From the NCBI GenBank assembly GCA_963784295.1, contig CAWAQL010000016.1, forward strand, positions 2,715-66,714: a DNA stretch of 64,000 bases, given 5' to 3'. The position numbers and the translations under genes were made by a program. Below the pieces are notes generated by a model. It was not told the origin of the DNA. It was given only the letters and a program-made list of their open reading frames with translations, and ran no database searches. Shown in pieces: positions 12,120 through 38,220 of this stretch. Source of the stretch: an uncultured beta proteobacterium (GTDB lineage Bacteria; Pseudomonadota; Gammaproteobacteria; Burkholderiales; Burkholderiaceae_C). Within the stretch, counting starts at the first letter, position 1. The number at the start of each line of letters is the position of its first letter.

Positions 12120-12574
12120 AACAGACACGGATGTCTGATGCCCGCCGTGTAGAGGCGCTCACCAACCGCTTCGGTCGCACGATGGCCGCGCATTTGTCGC
12201 AGGGGCTTGCAGACACTTCGCACGAAGTCGAAGAACGGCTGCGCGTGGCGCGTCTGCAAGCGGTCGAGCGCCGTCGCATTGCGCAGCGCGCCAGGGTGTC
12301 GCGACGCGTGGCCTCGGTGGTACGGGCCAATGGCGTGGCCACTCTGGGCGGCGATGAGGACGGCGGCTGGCGGATTCGTTGGGTGGCCGCGTTGCCGATT
12401 CTCGTGGTGGCCGCTGGGCTGTTGCTGATCAACGGCGTGCAAAGCGACAGCCGCGATGCCGAACTCGCCGAAGTGGACACCGCGCTGCTAACCGATGATC
12501 TGCCGCCGGCTGCCTATGCCGATCCGGGCTTCATGCAGTACCTGAAGTTGGCGCGAGATGGAACAGGCCACTGA
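12116..12574 (+). CDS. DUF3619-like membrane protein (possible anti-sigma partner)
   Basis: ATGA coupling to the sigma gene. It has a single TM segment (WVAALPILVVAAGLLLI). Its position matches the sigma/DUF3619/DUF3106/RDD order recalled for Burkholderiales. Confidence 0.6.
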   Translation: MKQTRMSDARRVEALTNRFGRTMAAHLSQGLADTSHEVEERLRVARLQAVERRRIAQRARVSRRVASVVRANGVATLGGDEDGGWRIRWVAALPILVVAAGLLLINGVQSDSRDAELAEVDTALLTDDLPPAAYADPGFMQYLKLARDGTGH

Positions 12575-13330
12575 TTCTGAGCGGATGGTGCCTGCGCAAT
12601 CCGGCGCTGCCAATATGAGGAAGCCCCGCTTTCGCCGACCCACCTTGCCATCGGCCGGAAGTTGCGTGTTTGCCGTGCTGTTGATCGGCGCGATGATGCT
12701 GTCTCCTGCTCGCACGCAGGCGCAACCGGCGGTCGCTGGTGCTGCTGCGTCTGCAGCGGCCCCAAGTCGCACGGTGGGCGGCAGCAAAGCTGCGGACGTC
12801 CAACGGCAATCATTCAGCATGGCGAAGCCACTCTGGAACCAGCTCTCGGATGCGCAGCGCGAAGCGCTCGCGCCGCTTTCCACGCATTGGGACGGGCTGA
12901 GCGTTTCGCAAAAGCGCAAATGGATTGCACTTTCCAAAAATCATGCCGAACTGAGCGTGCCGGAGCAGGCGTTGCTGCACGCCCGCATGGACGACTGGGT
13001 CAAGCTGAGCCCGCAGCAGCGCCGCACTGCGCGGCTCAACTTCGCGGAGACCAAGCGACTGAGCGCGGACGAGAAGCACCAGAGGTGGGAGGCGTACCAG
13101 GCGTTGTCACCCGATGCGCGACACAAGCTCAACGAGAGCGCGCCTGCAGTCCCGTCCGGCGCCGCGATGGCGGTGCGCCCAGTGCCGGCCCAGAAACTCG
13201 CCAATGTGCCGACCGCTGCGTCAAAACGGCAACGCGGCCCAGGCTGGCCGCACCCGACCAGATCAATCCCCACACCCTGCTGCCGCAGCACACACAAGGG
13301 ATGCGCGCTGGCGCAGCAGCCAAACCCTAG
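12558..13330 (+). pseudogene. DUF3106-like secreted protein, frame change near 13220
   Basis: The N-terminal signal and repeated W-x-L-S-PxQR helices (WNQLSDAQREAL, WIALSKN, WVKLSPQQRR, WEAYQALSPDARHKL) are in frame 0. The conserved-looking tail TATRPRLAAPDQINPHTLLPQ and a stop at 13328-13330 are in frame 2. Without the shift, the ORF runs on into the RDD gene. Confidence 0.5.
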
Positions 13331-30786: not shown

Positions 30787-31553
30787 CCGACAGGCTGCGG
30801 CTGCCGGCCGCGTTGCTCGCGCGCGCGGCGGCGCCCTACCGCAGCGCCGGACTGCACCCATGGTTGTTCGCCTGCGGCAAGTTGCGTGGCGATCCGGTGT
30901 TTGCGGCGTTGCTGCGGCTGGGGCTGATTCCGTCGCACAGCCGCCTGCTCGACTTGGGCTGCGGTCAAGGGTTGCTGGCGGCGTTGCTGTACGCAGCGGC
31001 GGACGCCGACACGGTCGCTTGGCCTCACGGGTGGTCCGACGCCCCGCGGGCGATAGCGCTGCAAGGGATCGACCACGCTGCGCGCGATGTGCGCTGGGCA
31101 CGTCACATGGCGGCATCGAGTCGAGATCGCCGCGCGTCGATGGACTTTGTGCAGGCCGACATCCGGCGCGTGGCGTTCGCCGAGCAGGACGTCGTCGTGT
31201 TGCTCGATGTGCTCCACTACTTGGCGCCGAACGCGCAAGAAGCGTTGCTTGCGCGCGTGCGCGATTGCCTGGTACCGGGCGGCAGGCTGCTGGTGCGCGT
31301 GGCGGATGCGCGGGCGGGTTTTGGCTTCGCGGCCGGCCTGCTCGTTGACCGGCTGGTGCTGGCGATGCGGGGGGCGCTGCGACCTCGGTTGCATGGCCGG
31401 CCGCTGGCCGAATGGCAGCTGCTGCTGCAGTCGCTTGGGTTTTCGCTGCACACGCATCCGATGCACGCTGGCACACCCTTTGCAAACCTGTTGTTGGTCG
31501 GGCAACTCGATCGATCCACCGAACCGTCCGAGAGGCTAGCCACATCTTCATGA
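30783..31553 (+). CDS. class I SAM-dependent methyltransferase
   Basis: Motif I LLDLGCGQGLL, plus DVVVLLDVLHYL and PGGRLLV. ATGA overlap with the deacetylase stop. Confidence 0.8.
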   Translation: MTDRLRLPAALLARAAAPYRSAGLHPWLFACGKLRGDPVFAALLRLGLIPSHSRLLDLGCGQGLLAALLYAAADADTVAWPHGWSDAPRAIALQGIDHAARDVRWARHMAASSRDRRASMDFVQADIRRVAFAEQDVVVLLDVLHYLAPNAQEALLARVRDCLVPGGRLLVRVADARAGFGFAAGLLVDRLVLAMRGALRPRLHGRPLAEWQLLLQSLGFSLHTHPMHAGTPFANLLLVGQLDRSTEPSERLATSS

Positions 31554-32463: not shown

Positions 32464-32865
32464 TCAATAGCGCCAGCCGGCCCCCGGGCCGCGCCCGTGG
32501 CGGTGCCGCCAGTGTCCCCGCGGAGCCCAGCCGATCGGATACACCGCCTGCGGCGCGGCAAAGATCGGCGGGGGCGCGACGACCGCGCCGCCGTAGTACG
32601 GCGGTGCGACGTAGACCGGCCGGGGCTGCACGTAGATGGGGCGGGGTTGCACATACACCGGCTGCGGCTGCACGTAAATCGGCTGCGGCTGGATGTATGG
32701 CTGCGCATACACCGGCGGCGGTGCGCGATAAGTCGGCACGCCGGTGGAGATGCCGACAGACCATGAGACGTGGCCCCCCGCTTGGGCCGCCGCCGGCAAC
32801 ACCATCGCGGCCAGGGCCAGCGCGGCGCTGCCACAGCCGAGCGCGAATCGTCGGATTGAGTTCAT
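32464..32865 (-). CDS. secreted PXPV-repeat protein
   Basis: GGAGAA RBS and signal peptide ([15 protein letters not shown]). A 7-aa repeat Q-P-x-P-[IV]-Y-V follows ([28 protein letters not shown]), and the protein ends in a basic tail. Confidence 0.7.
32608..32720. repeat. imperfect 21-bp tandem repeat (about 5 units) inside the PXPV-repeat gene
   Basis: The plus strand reads ctgcacgtagatggggcgggg / ttgcacatacaccggctgcgg / ctgcacgtaaatcggctgcgg / ctggatgtatggctgcgc... Confidence 0.7.
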
Positions 32866-33046
32866 TGAGGTTCTCCGTTCAAAAACAATTTTCGCAGCCG
32901 TCGGTGCGTCGGACGGGTTGTCCGAAAGCCTTCGTTCTGCTTGGCTTTCCATTCAACGCGACAGCCGCCAATGCGCGCACAACATTGCGTGTGAAACCCG
33001 TCGCAAAAGGTTACCGCAGGTGCGGCAATTTAAACTCTGTGTGCTT

Positions 33047-34886
33047 ATGACCACCGCCATGCACCCGACCGGATCGATCGTCGCTCGGCCCTCCGAGCCC
33101 GCCGACGCCGCCATCAGCCCCTCGAACAATTTTCTGCGACATGTGATTGAACAGGATCTGGCCAGTGGCCGCTACGCGGGGCGGCGGTTTGCGGGTCACC
33201 CGGCCGATGCGGCGGGGCACCGCGAAGGTCCGCTGGACGCCGCGCGCATCCGGACGCGCTTTCCACCGGAGCCGAACGGTTTTCTGCACATCGGCCACGC
33301 CAAAAGCATCTGCGTGAACTTCGGCCTGGCGCGCGACTACGGCGGCGTTTGCCACTTGCGGCTCGACGACACGAACCCGGAGAAGGAAGACGCCGCGTAC
33401 GTCGCAAGCATCGTCGATTCGGTGCACTGGCTCGGCTTCGACTGGACCGAAGGCGGCGTGAGCCACCTCTATCAGGCAAGCGACTATTTTGATTTCATGC
33501 ACCGCGCGGCTGTGTATCTGATCGAAGCCGGGCTCGCTTACGTGGACGAGCAAAGCGCAGTCGAGATGCGCGCCAACCGCGGCGACTTCAACACGCCGGG
33601 GACGGACAGTGTGTTTCGCCAACGCACGGTCGGCCGACAACCTCGCCCGCTTCGCCGAGATGAGAAGCGGCCAGCTGCCCGACGGCGCCGCGGTGCTGCG
33701 CGCGAAGATCGACATGGCCTCGCCCAACATCAACCTGCGCGATCCGGCGATCTACCGCATCCGGCATGCGACGCACCACAACACCGGTGACCGTTGGTGC
33801 ATCTATCCGATGTATGCGTTCGCGCACCCGATCGAGGATGCGCTCGAAAACATCACGCACAGCATTTGCACGCTTGAGTTCGAGGATCAGCGACCGTTCT
33901 ACGACTGGCTGCTGGCGCGACTCATCGAAGGCGGCTTGCTGGACGCCCCGGCACCGCGGCAGTATGAATTCGCGCGTCTGAACCTGACTTATGTGGTGAC
34001 GAGCAAGCGCAAGCTCAGAACGCTGGTCGAGCAAGGGTACGTCTCGGGCTGGGACGACCCGCGGCTGCCGACCATCGCGGGCATGCGCCGGCGCGGCTAC
34101 ACGCCCGAAGCGGTGCGCCTGTTCGCCGACCGCAGCGGCGTCAGCAAGGCCGGCGGCTGGATCGACTATTCAAGCCTTGAGATTGCTCTGCGCGACAGCC
34201 TGGACCCGATTGCGCCGCGCGTGATGGCGGTGATCGATCCGGTCCGGCTCACGATCACCAATTGGGATGAACTGATGGGCGCGGGCACGCTCGACGATTG
34301 CAGCGCGCCAGTGCATCCGCACCGTCCGGAAATGGGCAGGCGCAACTTCAGATTCGGCCGTGAGCTGTGGATCGAGCGCAGTGACTATGAAGAAGCACCG
34401 GCAAAAGGTTTTTTTCGGATGTATCCCGGCAACCGGGTACGCTTGAAGTACGGTCATGTCGTGCGTTGCACCGGTGCCGAGCGCGATGCCGACGGCCGCG
34501 TGGTCAAAGTGCTGGCCGAACTGGTCGAAAACACCAAAAGCGGTACGCCGGGCGCCGATGCGGTCAAGGTCAAGGGCGTCATCACCTGGGTCGGCGCGAC
34601 CGATGCGATCGGCACGGAAGTGCGACTGTACGACCGGTTGTTCACGCTCGCACAACCAGATGCCGGCGGGCAGGATTTTCTGGCGGCCTTGAATCCGGAA
34701 AGTCTCAGGGTCGTGCGTGGCTGGATCGAGCCTTCAGTGGGTACGAGTGGCGCGATTGCCGCACACCCCGACGCCAGATATCAGTTCGAGCGCCACGGCT
34801 ACTTCGTTGCGGACCGGGTCGATCATTCGGCTGCGGCGCCGGTGTTCAACAGGATCGCCGATCTAAAAGACAGCTGGGGGAAATGA
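33047..34886 (+). CDS. glnS: glutamine--tRNA ligase, carrying a +1 frameshift near 33631
   Basis: The class I motifs are present: [16 protein letters not shown] (HIGH) and VVTSKRKL (KMSKS-like). The N-terminal part is in the frame of ORF 32744..33790 up to FRQRTV. The rest ([14 protein letters not shown]...[16 protein letters not shown]) is in ORF 33609..34886. Removing one g from gtcggccgac restores RTVADNLARF. Confidence 0.9.
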
Positions 34887-35003: not shown

Positions 35004-35020
35004 GGGCGCCCAAGGCGCCC
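35004..35020. terminator. putative bidirectional hairpin between convergent glnS and the Tat-signal protein gene
   Basis: GGGCGCC-CAA-GGCGCCC forms a perfect 7-bp GC stem. Modestly T-containing tails follow on both strands. Confidence 0.4.
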
Positions 35021-35052: not shown

Positions 35053-35676
35053 TCAAGCGGCCAGTTGGTTAAAGTAAGTGTCGATCTGGGCGCTTGTATA
35101 AGTCTTATCGCCAATCGACGTTTTCACCGTGTAGCTGCCATTGTTGTAGCGCGCTTGAGCCAGTCCGATGATTTGCGCTGTCGTCAGGGGCACCAGATCG
35201 TTCGGCGGAGGATAAACCAGCGCGTTTTTGTACAACACGACAGCCTGCTTCAATGGAACCAAATTGGGTACCGGATTGTTGCCACTGAACGTCGCGTTCG
35301 TCAGCTTCAGCACCTGAAGCAGGGTTGCCTCGGGCAATGGGTTGTTATTGCTGTCGATAGCGCTTGTCGTCAGCGTGTTGTTGGTACGGACGTAAATTTT
35401 GATACCGAAGACGGAGCTGAATGTCGTTCTGTCGTTCTGCAGCGCTGACTGAACCCGGGCGTTGTTCAATGGCAGCGTGCACGACTGGTTTGCCGTTTGC
35501 TGATTAGGGCCGAACGCCGACTGATTGTTGGAGAGTTGGCCGGAAACGAAGCAGTGATAAGGCAGCGCGGCGAATGCGTTCTTGCTGGTGAGACTGGCAA
35601 GCACCACGGGCACGGCCAGTCCACCCTTAGCCAAACGGCGCCGGCTTGGGTTGGTAAGGGTAGTTTGATCGTTCAT
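35053..35676 (-). CDS. Tat-signal secreted hypothetical protein, Asn/Thr/Gln-rich, in a low-GC gene
   Basis: Twin-arginine motif SRRRLAKGG, then an h-region and AFA cleavage site. Hand-counted 60-nt blocks give about 47-58% GC against roughly 65% in the flanks. No family was recognised. Confidence 0.65.
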   Translation of the reverse strand: MNDQTTLTNPSRRRLAKGGLAVPVVLASLTSKNAFAALPYHCFVSGQLSNNQSAFGPNQQTANQSCTLPLNNARVQSALQNDRTTFSSVFGIKIYVRTNNTLTTSAIDSNNNPLPEATLLQVLKLTNATFSGNNPVPNLVPLKQAVVLYKNALVYPPPNDLVPLTTAQIIGLAQARYNNGSYTVKTSIGDKTYTSAQIDTYFNQLAA

Positions 35677-35710: not shown

Positions 35711-35727
35711 ATGCACTATTTGTGCCA
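35711..35727 (-). promoter_or_regulatory. candidate sigma-54 (-24/-12) promoter upstream of the Tat-signal protein gene
   Basis: The minus strand reads TGGCAC-AAATA-GTGCAT, against the consensus TGGCAC-N5-TTGCW. It lies about 35 nt upstream of the ATG at 35676. Confidence 0.5.
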
Positions 35728-35822
35728 CGAAAATATCTTCTGCTTAATCAACGACTTGGATAGACCGAAGCGCGTGCATCGCTTCGACTGTAAAAAAATC
35801 CGACACGATCTGCGCCGACCCT

Positions 35823-36896
35823 TCAGGCAACAACTTCCTGTTTACGCAGCAATGCTTTGTGCAGCAGATGCGGCGCTAGCAGGTGCAGCGGCATGCGCAG
35901 CCAGTGGCTGCGGATATATAGCAGGCCCTGCGCACTTGCGGTCCAGCGCGTGCGCAGACTGTGATGTGCCGCGGTCAAGCCGTTCATGAACAAAAAGTCC
36001 ATCCGCGGCGTCGATTCTGACGCGAATTCGCGCAGCGAGGCGTCCGGCACCGGAGTCTGCAGCACGCGCCGGGCATAGCGCAGCGCATAGGCCAGCGGCT
36101 GGCGCAGATTCATTTCGTCGGCGCGCGCCGCCAGCCGCGTCCAGAAATCATGATCATCCGAGGCGTAAGCACGCAGCAGCAGATCGAGGTCGCTCAGATC
36201 GCGCAGCCCGTGCTCCCATTCGCCCTCGTGGAACAGGTGGGTCGCGGAATGCAGTACCTGATCGAGCGCGCTTGGTATCAAGACCTGTGTCTGGCCGGCC
36301 AGCGCAGCAGCCGCCGTGATGATGCGCTCAGGGTGGGTGCGAATGCGCGCGGTCTCCGGCAGGATGTTGTGGTGCACGTCGAGCGGCGTGCGCCGGCGGT
36401 AATGCAGCATCGGCGGCAGTTCGTGCATCCAACGCCGGTAATAGCGCTGGTCGTATGCGTCGAGCTTGGCGCTGATCCAGCCAGCCATCGTCAGCGCGTG
36501 CTCGACCTCTTGGATGCGCGCCCTGGGCACCAGGATGTCGACGTCGGAAAAGGTTCGCCCGAGCGCCGCCGGCAGCCCCGCTGCCGCATACGCAGCGCCC
36601 TTGAGCAGCACGATCGGCGCGCCGGTGCGAGCAAGTGCCTGGGCGATCTGCTTGACTTCCCAATGCACGGCGCGCGTCTGCAACCGGACGCCGGTTGTGG
36701 CCGCCGTCATGTGGCGCAGCGCTGCGTCCGGAATCTGCCGCACGACGTCCAGCGCAGCCGCCTGCGCATGCAGCCGGCCGAGCAGTCCGGCGCCGTTTGC
36801 CTGCCGCACCAGCAGATCCCATTCGCCGGCGGTGAAGCCGGGCATCACACGCGCATCACGCAGTGCACGCAAAAGCGGGGAATCGAGCCAATTCAT
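35823..36896 (-). CDS. uncharacterised nucleotidyltransferase family protein (NTP_transf_5/PF14907-like)
   Basis: LLKGAAYAAAGL...GRTFSDVDILVP (G-x-x-x-S-D-x-D polymerase-beta-type NTase motif). ATGA overlap with the upstream kinase gene. Confidence 0.7.
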   Translation of the reverse strand: MNWLDSPLLRALRDARVMPGFTAGEWDLLVRQANGAGLLGRLHAQAAALDVVRQIPDAALRHMTAATTGVRLQTRAVHWEVKQIAQALARTGAPIVLLKGAAYAAAGLPAALGRTFSDVDILVPRARIQEVEHALTMAGWISAKLDAYDQRYYRRWMHELPPMLHYRRRTPLDVHHNILPETARIRTHPERIITAAAALAGQTQVLIPSALDQVLHSATHLFHEGEWEHGLRDLSDLDLLLRAYASDDHDFWTRLAARADEMNLRQPLAYALRYARRVLQTPVPDASLREFASESTPRMDFLFMNGLTAAHHSLRTRWTASAQGLLYIRSHWLRMPLHLLAPHLLHKALLRKQEVVA

Positions 36897-37801
36897 GCAA
36901 GGACCTGCGAAAACAGTCGCACTGCTTCGTCCAAGCTCGAATACTCGAAGTCGAAACACTCGCAGGCGTCGATCAGTGCCGCGTTCAGGTCGTAGCCGAC
37001 GCTGCCCAGCAACTCGTAGTTGAACGCATGGCCGGCCACGTGCATGAACGAATCGGCCCTTGGTCGCGGCGTCAGGCGCGTGGCGGCACCGGCGCGCCAG
37101 CGCGGAAACGCAATCAGGGCAGGTTTCGCCTTCTCCGCCGCGCGCCGCACACTCTCAGCCGAAGGTTTCAGGTGCGCGACAGTTCCCTTGTGCGTGTCGT
37201 GCGCGGCGTCGCCGAACACCGCCTGCGGCTCGAATGCGCGGATGATCGCGATCGAGTCGTTCTTGAGATTGATCGGCCGCGCCAGCGGTACCAACAATCC
37301 GTCATCGCGATCGAGCATGGCCATTTCGTCGGACAACAGCCGAAAGCCGGACAACGCAAGCGCCGCGGTCAACGTGCTTTTGCCCGCACCCGGATCGCCA
37401 GGCAGGATCAAGGCGCGGCCATTTTTTTCCAGCACCGCTGCATGGAGCAGCAGATAGTGATGCGCGTGTGCCGCAATGCACCAGTTCAGACCCCATTCGA
37501 GCGATGCAAAAGCGTGATCGGCCGGCAGCGGCTTGAACGGCGTCATCCCATCGAACTTGAAGACAATCTGCGGCCGCCAGAAGGCGCGCGGCCCACTCAC
37601 ACGGTCCACGCTGACCGAGAAGTCGGCGAATTCTTCGGCGGGATGCACTTCGAAATCGGCATACAGCCGCGCCAGCCCTTCGCGCACCGTTGCTTCGTGC
37701 GACACGATGCGCGTGCGAAACGGCCCGGTCTGCAACAGCAGCCCTTCTTGCAACCGTTCGCTCAGTTCGGGCCGCGTCAGATCGGCCAGCCGATGGATCA
37801 T
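36893..37801 (-). CDS. HPr-kinase-related P-loop kinase (HprK-related kinase A-like)
   Basis: HAAVLEKNGRALILPGDPGAGKSTLTAAL has a Walker A loop in an HprK C-terminal-like context, with LLSDE downstream. ATGA overlaps occur at both ends. Confidence 0.7.
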   Translation of the reverse strand: MIHRLADLTRPELSERLQEGLLLQTGPFRTRIVSHEATVREGLARLYADFEVHPAEEFADFSVSVDRVSGPRAFWRPQIVFKFDGMTPFKPLPADHAFASLEWGLNWCIAAHAHHYLLLHAAVLEKNGRALILPGDPGAGKSTLTAALALSGFRLLSDEMAMLDRDDGLLVPLARPINLKNDSIAIIRAFEPQAVFGDAAHDTHKGTVAHLKPSAESVRRAAEKAKPALIAFPRWRAGAATRLTPRPRADSFMHVAGHAFNYELLGSVGYDLNAALIDACECFDFEYSSLDEAVRLFSQVLA

Positions 37802-38220
37802 GGAACCAACTCCACGATGCCCATCTGTTGAAGTTGGGCCAGCGCTGTCTGCACGTCATCCAGATGCAGATCCACTTCCTCGGACAACACCAACGCGCTG
37901 GCCGGTGCCTCCAGGAGCCGCTGCAGCAACTGACCCACCGCTTCAGGCAAGCGATGGGTATCGCCCGAGGCCCCATGCCAGACCACATACTCGGAGTCCC
38001 AGCAGCGGAACTGCAAGCCAGCATCGGCGGCAACTTGCCAAGGGAGGCCTGGACTCACAGGAAATTTAGGATCAGACAATTGGATGGCGCGCCAACGGCC
38101 TATGGATGTCGATGAGACGATCGCCGCTGACGACGTAGGCACCCATCGCTTGGGACGCATGCCATGATTGTGTGGTCCAAGCGATCGTTGGGCAGAGACC
38201 TGCAGCATAGCGTTCGTCAT
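37798..38220 (-). CDS. PqqD-family (RiPP recognition element-like) small protein with an apparent N-terminal extension
   Basis: The C-terminal 85 aa (FRCWDSEYVVWHGASGDTHRLPEAVGQLLQRLLEAP...LHLDDVQTALAQLQQMGIVELV) have the PqqD/RRE winged-helix pattern. The start is uncertain (38220, 38160 or further in). Confidence 0.65.
   Translation of the reverse strand: MTNAMLQVSAQRSLGPHNHGMRPKRWVPTSSAAIVSSTSIGRWRAIQLSDPKFPVSPGLPWQVAADAGLQFRCWDSEYVVWHGASGDTHRLPEAVGQLLQRLLEAPASALVLSEEVDLHLDDVQTALAQLQQMGIVELVP

Follow-up and report, generated by a model that had tools for sequence, protein, structure and literature searches.

In a 64,000-nt stretch of contig CAWAQL010000016.1 (assembly GCA_963784295.1) from an uncultured beta proteobacterium, hereafter the window, three adjoining minus-strand genes raise the question of what a compact set of modifying enzymes acts upon. 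They encode a small PqqD-like protein of the RRE type [the recognition element of RiPPs, peptides synthesized ribosomally and modified post-translationally], an HprK-related kinase and a nucleotidyltransferase, and together they form what is named the HPr-rel-A system. The initial annotation regarded this trio as an orphan, with no visible precursor and no flanking open reading frame (ORF) of interest. We find instead that the cassette supplies the enzymes of a four-gene unit that is widespread, and that the fourth gene, here termed p207, lies just downstream of the nucleotidyltransferase gene in the window, at 35053–35676 (Table 1). The product of p207 carries a twin-arginine translocation (Tat) leader followed by a conserved serine motif, and, judging from sequence comparison, is the likely substrate of the cassette.

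As the identity of the three enzymes underlies everything that follows, we examined the genes and their family placement individually. Both gene junctions could be read directly in the sequence: the stop codon of the PqqD-like gene (37800–37798) lies within an ATGA overlap with the kinase start (ATG 37801–37799), and the kinase stop (36895–36893) is embedded in the same manner in the nucleotidyltransferase start (ATG 36896–36894). The three ORFs are thus co-directional and joined by ATGA as had been reported, and the motifs GDPGAGKST and GRTFSDVDILV are present in the translations. In profile searches, the family assignments made initially were all borne out above the curated cut-offs: the kinase scored 396.7 bits against TIGR04352 (cut-off 200, with 279 of 280 profile positions covered), the small protein 41.2 bits against TIGR04353 (cut-off 35) and the nucleotidyltransferase 188.7 bits against PF14907 (cut-off 31.2). 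With scores far over such cut-offs the assignments are not a product of chance, and the set comprises a TIGR04352 kinase, its TIGR04353 PqqD neighbour and a PF14907 third gene, as expected of the HPr-rel-A system. A correction applies to the start of the PqqD-like gene, which had been placed at 38220. The TIGR04353 alignment is confined to residues 74–136 of the 140-aa longest ORF (ATG 38220), and similarity to homologues starts at ‘PWQV’ (near ‘SPGLPWQV’); for these reasons the gene probably begins at the GTG at 38058.

For comparison, we used 80 loci from different species, mostly contigs of metagenome-assembled genomes (MAGs), each of which contains a kinase relative at 37–72 % identity and for which ORFs were called mechanically. 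A PqqD-like homologue is found directly upstream of the kinase in 72 of these loci, and a nucleotidyltransferase gene directly follows it in 77. The small ORFs at the PqqD position in loci L081–L085 had no precomputed Pfam match. The families of HprK-related kinase A and its PqqD partner comprise well over 2,000 sequence clusters, which is a lower bound; carriers of the cassette include the isolates Herbaspirillum sp. SJZ107 and Pelomonas cellulosilytica.

In order to search these loci for a partner gene, we used tblastn and then a hidden Markov model (HMM) built from the first matches. An HMM match lay next to the cassette, in the same orientation, in 70 of the 80 loci, in addition to the window. 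The partner most often stands first in the operon, in the order partner–PqqD–kinase–nucleotidyltransferase (53 loci), whilst in nine loci, as in the window, it is found 3′ of the nucleotidyltransferase gene; going by gene order, it has been shifted to the 3′ end in the window's clade. Just upstream of the PqqD gene, three of the ten loci with no HMM match (L049, L062 and L064) have an ORF in which a twin-arginine motif is followed by a Cys, and the same holds for two loci with a weak match (L079 and L068); in a further weakly matching locus, L036, the twin-arginine ORF at this position lacks the Cys. Amongst the other HMM-negative loci, the contigs of L059, L077 and L078 open with the kinase, and L007 and L065 are short contigs. 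We also performed the reverse look-up, starting from three divergent partner proteins (from Aliiglaciecola, Polaromonas and a Joint Genome Institute metagenome). All three led back to a cassette, with the order partner, 84–101-aa ORF, PF27840 kinase and PF14907 gene. Where paralogous partner copies exist (L004, L008 and L066), every copy retains the serine motif. In locus L003 the partner gene is split in two overlapping frames (12169–12672 and 12540–13166, plus strand), which is probably an assembly frameshift in that MAG. Clustering of all locus ORFs of ≥ 70 aa revealed no family besides the partner and the cassette that is conserved across loci, a search that short peptide genes would escape. 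The linkage between partner and cassette is near certain, and the neighbourhood comparison that had been proposed as a check for a conserved partner ORF did return one. Neither the description of the cassette as an orphan nor that of its flanks as devoid of a candidate precursor can be maintained.

The p207 protein begins with the residues N-P-S-R12-R13-R14-L-A-K-G-G-L-A, followed by an h-region and A-F-A36. This agrees with the Tat pattern of S/T-R-R-x-F/L-x-K, h-region and A-x-A (S11-R-R-R-L-A-K…A-F-A36), and cleavage is predicted after A36. A short distance beyond this site lies a segment bounded by two cysteines and rich in serine (Table 1). An alignment of 319 members gave the leader pattern [VP][DN]xS-RRR-[LF]-x-[KR]-GGLA, h-region and S[KR]PVLG/A, in which [VP][DN]xS precedes RR, and RR is followed by R (80 %), L or F (90 %) and, two positions on, K or R (60 %). 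The corresponding core pattern is C-(x)-[TS]-x-S-[GA]-x-x-S-G-N-x-S, 7–8 residues and C, with frequencies of 82 % for G at +1, 90 % for N at +2 and 95 % for S at +4. Amongst 48 locus sequences R12, C42, S45, S49 and C66 are invariant and R13 is ≥ 90 % conserved. A set of 66 database proteins shows no variation at C42, S45 and C66, and conservation of ≥ 90 % at R12, R13, S49, N51, S53 and N151. Mean column identity in the family is 15–22 %, and the invariant or near-invariant residues are limited to RR, C42, S45, S49, N51, S53, C66 and N151.

When 1.84 billion representatives were searched with a profile, 6,133 relatives of p207 were returned with E ≤ 1e-3, of which 2,405 had E ≤ 1e-10. These proteins are annotated as hypothetical in every source and have no Pfam or NCBIfam model besides weak matches to Tat-signal models; one of these, TIGR02811, matches six of the 66 database members weakly, and p207 of the window is matched by none. 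Rather than the short precursor typical of lasso peptides (a leader and a core of ∼20 aa), the partners are proteins of 190–290 aa in which a Tat signal is combined with a folded domain. In the AlphaFold2 model of p207 [predicted local distance difference test (pLDDT) 80] residues 1–66 are of low confidence and residues 70–207 form a block with pLDDT 84–97, so that the motif lies in a low-confidence stretch next to a confidently folded domain. A Foldseek search of the PDB with this model gave no similar structure (best E 0.38, TM < 0.2). The C-terminus (…DTYFNQLAA) had no match to PF07589, and a PEP-CTERM sorting domain is absent.

Two groups of relatives depart from this architecture. The divergent Tat-leader proteins of L049, L062, L064 and L079 keep the leader and the first Cys but differ in the core (e.g. 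QCIVASREASPSD), which suggests, from these sequences, that the leader is a constant recognition element and that the cores diversify. An 808-aa database protein, P0243, consists of six tandem p207 C-terminal domains (CSPGFW…AALLNA…) without Tat leader or serine motif and with Cys residues bordering every one of the copies; the p207 C-terminal domain is thus an independent module.

Further evidence on the role of p207 comes from its upstream region. Genes for PEP-CTERM proteins are preceded by a 17-nt motif that ends in TTTACA and lies a mean of 62.8 nt upstream of a −24/−12 motif, a cis-element attributed to the enhancer-binding regulator PrsR (Haft 2006, PMC1569441), and sigma-54 dependence has been demonstrated experimentally for one PEP-CTERM-type gene (PMC9850573). 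The 146-nt intergenic region before p207 contains both parts of this arrangement: TGTCGGATTTTTTTACA, the one place in the 64 kb window where TGTCGG-N5-TTTACA is matched exactly, and, after a spacer of 61 nt, TGGCACAAATAGTGCA, with one mismatch to TGGCAC-N5-TTGCW. Of 66 partner genes, 35 have a sigma-54 element in the 300 nt upstream, against ∼3.5 expected, and 26 of these 35 genes have TTTACA 50–94 nt further upstream (chance expectation 0.007 per search window). In 2.67 Mb of sequence we counted 63 matches to the box with at most one mismatch to TGTCGG-N5-TTTACA, 29 of which lie just upstream of partner genes (29 of the 66). Of the other matches, at least nine lie ahead of ORFs with a terminal PEP-CTERM sorting signal, which confirms the motif as the PEP-CTERM box. 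Box and sigma-54 promoter together would place p207 in the PrsK/PrsR regulon, to which the XrtA exopolysaccharide and floc system's PEP-CTERM proteins belong. A scan for sigma-70 promoters found none in the cassette region. The stop codon of the nucleotidyltransferase is directly followed by a weak hairpin of terminator type with a T-run (35800–35818, minus strand). As this overlaps the PEP-CTERM box, one set of bases may act both as terminator of the trio's transcript and as enhancer site of p207. Elsewhere in the window, a perfect sigma-54 consensus (TGGCACACCCTTTGCA; 31469–31484, plus strand) lies upstream of a CbiX-like gene, ∼66 nt from its likely start (Met47, ∼31550); it is unaccompanied by a PEP-CTERM box.

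Table 1. Position of the cassette, p207 and associated elements, with protease genes of comparison loci in the last row
Feature	Position	Strand	Remarks
PqqD-like RRE protein (HPr-rel-A system peptide chaperone)	37798..38058	-	Likely GTG start 38058; 86 aa
HprK-related kinase A	36893..37801	-	302 aa; P-loop GDPGAGKST; predicted PEPCK/HprK-type fold
PF14907 (NTP_transf_5) nucleotidyltransferase	35823..36896	-	ATG at 36896; 357 aa; carries GRTFSDVDILV
Partner gene p207, Tat-signal protein, proposed substrate	35053..35676	-	207 aa; 146 nt downstream of nucleotidyltransferase
p207 codons 1–36, twin-arginine leader	35569..35676	-	Presumed RRE-binding region and Tat signal
p207 codons 42–66, conserved ‘core’	35479..35553	-	C42-F-V-S45-G-Q-L-S49-N-N51-Q-S53...C66
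PEP-CTERM box motif 1, putative PrsR enhancer site	35789..35805	-	TGTCGGATTTTTTTACA
Sigma-54-type −24/−12 promoter	35712..35727	-	TGGCACAAATAGTGCA; ends 35 nt before p207 ATG
GC-rich terminator-like hairpin	35004..35020	-	GGGCGCCTTGGGCGCCC; after p207 stop; weak T-tail; consensus match
Protease genes near cassettes (trypsin-like/M10)	L019 15736–16587; L081 7048–7854; L082 11080–11970		

With regard to the enzymes, the catalytic residues of the kinase, which the initial annotation had wanted checked by alignment, are all kept: 26 homologues show no variation at H120, the loop G135-DPGAGKST-143 or S157-D158-E159, and these residues line up with the His, Walker A and Asp-Asp in the L. casei HprK/P structure 1jb1. 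Folds most similar to its AlphaFold2 model (pLDDT 89) in the PDB were those of ATP-dependent phosphoenolpyruvate carboxykinases (PEPCK; E 5e-8), followed by HprK/P (E 1e-4), and the model accordingly has the predicted fold of the PEPCK/HprK phosphotransferase class, with an N-terminal half that resembles the PEPCK N-domain and not that of HprK. Against the HprK/P family proper, TIGR00679, the kinase reached 16.5 bits (cut-off 240). It also stayed below the cut-offs of ScmC, TIGR04249 (E 1e-3, 18 bits, cut-off 125), and of HprK-related kinase B, TIGR04355 (E 7e-6, 25 bits, cut-off 200); its precomputed Pfam family is PF27840 ‘ScmC’.

In the nucleotidyltransferase, K99, G100, R114, D118, D120, E132, D173, H175, H216 and D236 are invariant across 34 homologues and G113 is ≥ 90 % conserved, which includes the Pol-beta-type motif G-[SR]…D-x-D and a third acidic residue (D173). 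Neither single-sequence nor profile searches identified a significant relative in the PDB; the best matches, the MenT3/TglT Rv1045 toxin nucleotidyltransferases (E 0.35–0.68), align at two motifs without reaching significance. The C-terminal domain of MdcG in Pfam was matched at E 0.0038 (17.6 bits, cut-off 26.5). By direct reading, kinase and nucleotidyltransferase both lack an N-terminal signal. The RRE protein is likewise without signal sequence, and as the three need nucleotide triphosphates they are expected to act in the cytoplasm. For the small protein, a family profile (A5) matched the lasso B1 proteins TfuB1 (6jx3_B; E 1.1e-3, positions 13–83 of 90) and TbiB1 (5v1u_A; E 1.4e-3, positions 9–87); these matches are weak yet span nearly the whole RRE domain.

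Tat exports proteins that have been completed in the cytoplasm. We propose that p207 would be synthesized with its twin-arginine leader, to which the RRE protein would bind in the cytoplasm, thereby presenting the disordered C-x2-S-x3-S-(G/N)-N-x-S segment. The HprK-like kinase would then use ATP to phosphorylate at least one of Ser45, Ser49 and Ser53, and the PF14907 enzyme would add a second group to the phosphate, either a hexose in phosphodiester linkage, as in pseudomycoidin, or a nucleotide. The modified, folded p207 would be exported via Tat and its leader cut after A-F-A36, which would leave the modified segment at the mature N-terminus, ahead of a domain of ∼140 aa without known fold. 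Transcription of p207 would be controlled by PrsR and sigma-54 through the PEP-CTERM box. There is precedent for the enzymology from the only homologues studied: a Ser in a lasso precursor is phosphorylated by PsmK, and the nucleotidyltransferase PsmN is required for the hexose (+162 Da) then found on the phosphate (PMC6993621); an HPr-type kinase, PqqD and an uncharacterized nucleotidyltransferase also co-occur in lasso clusters (PMC7533575). On balance we favour the full model, from the leader-bound RRE to PrsR/sigma-54 control, by a narrow measure; that p207 is the substrate we hold to be somewhat more probable than the model as a whole, and the specific chemistry is put forward more tentatively, as somewhat less probable than not.

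A number of observations weigh against this interpretation. The functional claims for the cassette and p207 are all computational, and our literature search found no paper on the HPr-rel-A system, HprK-related kinase A or PF27840. Conserved linkage is not proof of an enzyme–substrate relation, and a folded protein of 207 aa is atypical as the substrate of an RRE system. The RRE assignment itself rests on TIGR04353 together with profile matches at E∼1e-3; PF05402 (PqqD) in Pfam did not match the small protein, nor did any Pfam family at E ≤ 0.01. The kinase falls short of Pfam Hpr_kinase_C (16.1 bits, cut-off 33.3), and the direct chemistry of PsmN is itself ambiguous (PMC6993621). With respect to p207, the Tat model TIGR01409 matches only seven of 66 members, weakly (best E 0.013), and the copy in the window is off consensus, having SNNQS for SGNxS and lacking PGYW. 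Finally, the enzyme genes in the window's clade are not downstream of the box and may or may not be co-regulated with p207, and the 64-kb window is without XrtA, PrsK, PrsR and PrsT.

This last point leads to the wider neighbourhood of the cassette, and to a different reading of p207. Recurrent neighbours across the 80 loci, confirmed by NCBIfam, include PrsR (TIGR02915), PrsT (TIGR02917), a glycosyltransferase (TIGR03013) and an exporter (TIGR03027), and further genes of the XrtA system, namely a chain-length determinant (TIGR03007), a tyrosine kinase (TIGR03018) and an ATPase (TIGR03015). At least one XrtA/PEP-CTERM marker lies within 10 kb of the cassette in 38 of the 80 loci; counting only loci of ≥ 18 kb, the figure is 24 of 46. 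p207 could be a co-regulated periplasmic companion that works in the same process, whilst the trio would act on a small unannotated peptide, on PEP-CTERM proteins or on an XrtA exopolysaccharide pathway carrier or glycan. The cassette indeed lies inside or adjoins XrtA/PEP-CTERM loci in these 38 cases, the C-terminal domain of p207 is folded, conserved and also encountered on its own as the six copies in P0243, and the ambiguity concerning PsmN means that the nucleotidyltransferase could make or transfer a group derived from a sugar nucleotide. An RRE, however, implies a peptide or protein substrate, and the strictest conservation in p207 is found in the Ser/Cys motif of the disordered stretch after the leader and not in the folded domain. 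Moreover, the linkage of p207 to the cassette persists where XrtA genes are not nearby, as in the window and L001, and no other family is conserved in the loci, with the restriction given above for short peptides. We therefore regard p207 as an unlikely mere companion.

If p207 is instead modified as proposed above, its role in the XrtA system can be pictured further. The Tat leader would act as a RiPP-style leader, and a phosphodiester-linked glycan or nucleotide on p207 would be a handle that primes, anchors or accepts XrtA material after export, for instance as an attachment point for exopolysaccharide or as the exosortase nucleophile for PEP-CTERM proteins; p207 might then be the core of a phosphoglycosylated ‘proteoglycan’. 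This extension is speculative, and we think it distinctly unlikely to be right in this form.

The nature of the leader also allows for a regulatory role. In this case the PqqD-like protein would be a Tat-signal chaperone in the manner of TorD, DmsD or NapD, and reversible phosphorylation or nucleotidylylation of serine would time the export of p207 instead of leaving a lasting functional modification. HprK/P enzymes are bifunctional kinase/phosphorylases, the leader is of Tat type with the motif directly abutting it, and all three enzymes appear to be cytoplasmic. It would nonetheless be uneconomical to maintain three enzymes for one small protein, the motif, which is better conserved than the leader, would stay with the mature protein after the predicted cleavage, and the lasso homologues make stable adducts. 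As such, the gating of export is improbable as the function of the cassette.

The two invariant Cys residues flanking invariant Ser, with a C-x2-3-S spacing, bring to mind lanthionine formation. Class II–IV lanthipeptide synthetases use phosphorylation followed by elimination, and a motif Ser activated by the kinase, possibly with the nucleotidyltransferase, could undergo elimination and form a thioether with Cys42 or Cys66 at the mature N-terminus. Neither the cassette nor its conserved neighbours provide a lyase or cyclase domain, however; two Cys in a Tat-exported, periplasmic protein are more simply explained by a disulfide, and the P0243 repeats keep their border Cys without the serine motif. 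We judge this chemistry to be very improbable.

That the cassette is an orphan or remnant lasso-type tailoring set, whose precursor and core enzymes were lost or lie elsewhere, was the alternative kept in reserve by the initial annotation, and it is extremely improbable despite the co-occurrence of the same three protein types in Firmicute lasso clusters and an RRE profile closest to lasso B1 proteins: as had been noted for this locus, no cyclase (Asn-synthetase-like C protein; Pfam), B2 leader peptidase (transglutaminase-like) or ABC exporter was found in the window flanks or amongst the recurrent neighbours of the 80 loci, which are XrtA/PEP-CTERM exopolysaccharide genes instead, thousands of cassette relatives have a fixed fourth partner, and conservation of all catalytic residues argues against decay.

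The remaining surroundings of the cassette in the window are unrelated to it and largely of the housekeeping type, with genes for an MMPL-like protein, a polysaccharide deacetylase, a methyltransferase, CbiX, CrcB, glnS and an HI0933-type flavoprotein. Synteny was found solely with the Burkholderiales MAG of locus L001, and the markers for the TIGR03013 glycosyltransferase, export, chain length, tyrosine kinase and ATPase are also absent from the 64 kb. The glnS gene, for glutaminyl-tRNA synthetase, is split between two overlapping plus-strand ORFs in different frames, with Pfam tRNA-synt_1c positions 2–126 in 32744–33790 and 124–311 in 33609–34886; this points to a frameshift, through either assembly error or pseudogene formation. 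On the opposite strand (32464–32952), a 162-aa secreted protein with tandem P-[IV]-Y-V-Q-P-[QR] repeats belongs to no Pfam family. In the comparison loci, a trypsin-like serine protease family occurs near the cassette in 14 cases and immediately upstream of the partner in L081, and an M10 metallopeptidase gene directly follows the nucleotidyltransferase gene on two Joint Genome Institute metagenome contigs (L082 and L083) that represent one metagenomic context. Both proteases were considered as maturation enzymes and rejected, as their position and occurrence are inconsistent.

Compared with systems already described, the cassette shares most with the tailoring sets of paeninodin and pseudomycoidin (PadeK/PsmK, PsmN and a B1 RRE), in which the same three protein types stand side by side; TfuB1 and TbiB1 are likewise the closest relatives of the RRE profile. 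Unlike those sets, the p207 cassette is without cyclase, B2 peptidase and exporter, and its kinase belongs to TIGR04352/PF27840, below the Pfam Hpr_kinase_C cut-off. The targets also differ, as lasso kinases modify a C-terminal Ser of a short peptide, whereas p207 is a Tat-exported protein of 207 aa with an internal, N-proximal Ser motif. Lasso tailoring sets are moreover found in Firmicute clusters, and the p207 cassette in a proteobacterial host with predicted sigma-54 regulation. With HprK/P the kinase has in common the aligned His, Walker A and acidic pair, the PEPCK/HprK fold class and, as predicted for the cassette enzyme, direction towards Ser; it differs in scoring below TIGR00679, in its PEPCK-like N-terminal half and in having no HPr or phosphotransferase system context. 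Two further HprK-like kinases, ScmC of the SynChlorMet system (TIGR04249) and kinase B of the GAK system (TIGR04355), also belong to uncharacterized cassettes that resemble peptide-modification systems. Their partner enzymes are different, being either radical SAM/SPASM proteins or an ATP-grasp protein with CofD.

For the remaining components, more distant parallels can be drawn. TorD, DmsD and NapD are thought to bind the twin-arginine leader during cargo maturation, and as small cytoplasmic leader binders that act before export they may be likened to the RRE protein. Unlike them, this protein has the winged-helix fold of PqqD and RREs, and the step proposed is a covalent modification of Ser rather than cofactor insertion. 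Holo-acyl carrier protein synthases of the MdcG/CitX type have a nucleotidyltransferase fold and form a Ser-O-phosphodiester on a protein. The likeness of the cassette nucleotidyltransferase to these enzymes is one of analogy, as the Pfam match lies below the cut-off and the genes of the dephospho-CoA pathway are lacking. With the PrsK/PrsR/PrsT regulon of XrtA/PEP-CTERM systems (Haft 2006; Xia 2023), p207 shares the same box, the spacer of ∼62 nt and the −24/−12 promoter, and in contrast to PEP-CTERM proteins it uses a Tat leader and has no C-terminal sorting signal.

As its families have already been named, there is nothing new in the trio by itself. What appears to be undescribed in the literature searched, Pfam and NCBIfam is the fourth component, its motif and the tie to the PEP-CTERM box and XrtA system: amongst the papers searched, we found no PEP-CTERM or exosortase paper that mentions PqqD or HprK, so that a link to HPr-rel-A is undescribed there, and the RRE-Finder paper does not mention kinases. 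The TIGRFAM notes may mention an association with exosortase. HprK-related kinase A and its PqqD partner are curated families. What is gained here is a candidate substrate in a large unmodelled family, the residues likely to be modified, and a link to the XrtA/PEP-CTERM system of floc formation. Should p207 indeed be the substrate, the chemistry of PF14907 would become accessible, a question shared with lasso peptides. We infer a system in which RRE-guided post-translational modification is applied to a Tat-exported protein; if this is true, such modification would reach from the short peptides of the known clusters to proteins exported via Tat, with the secretion signal serving as the recognition leader.

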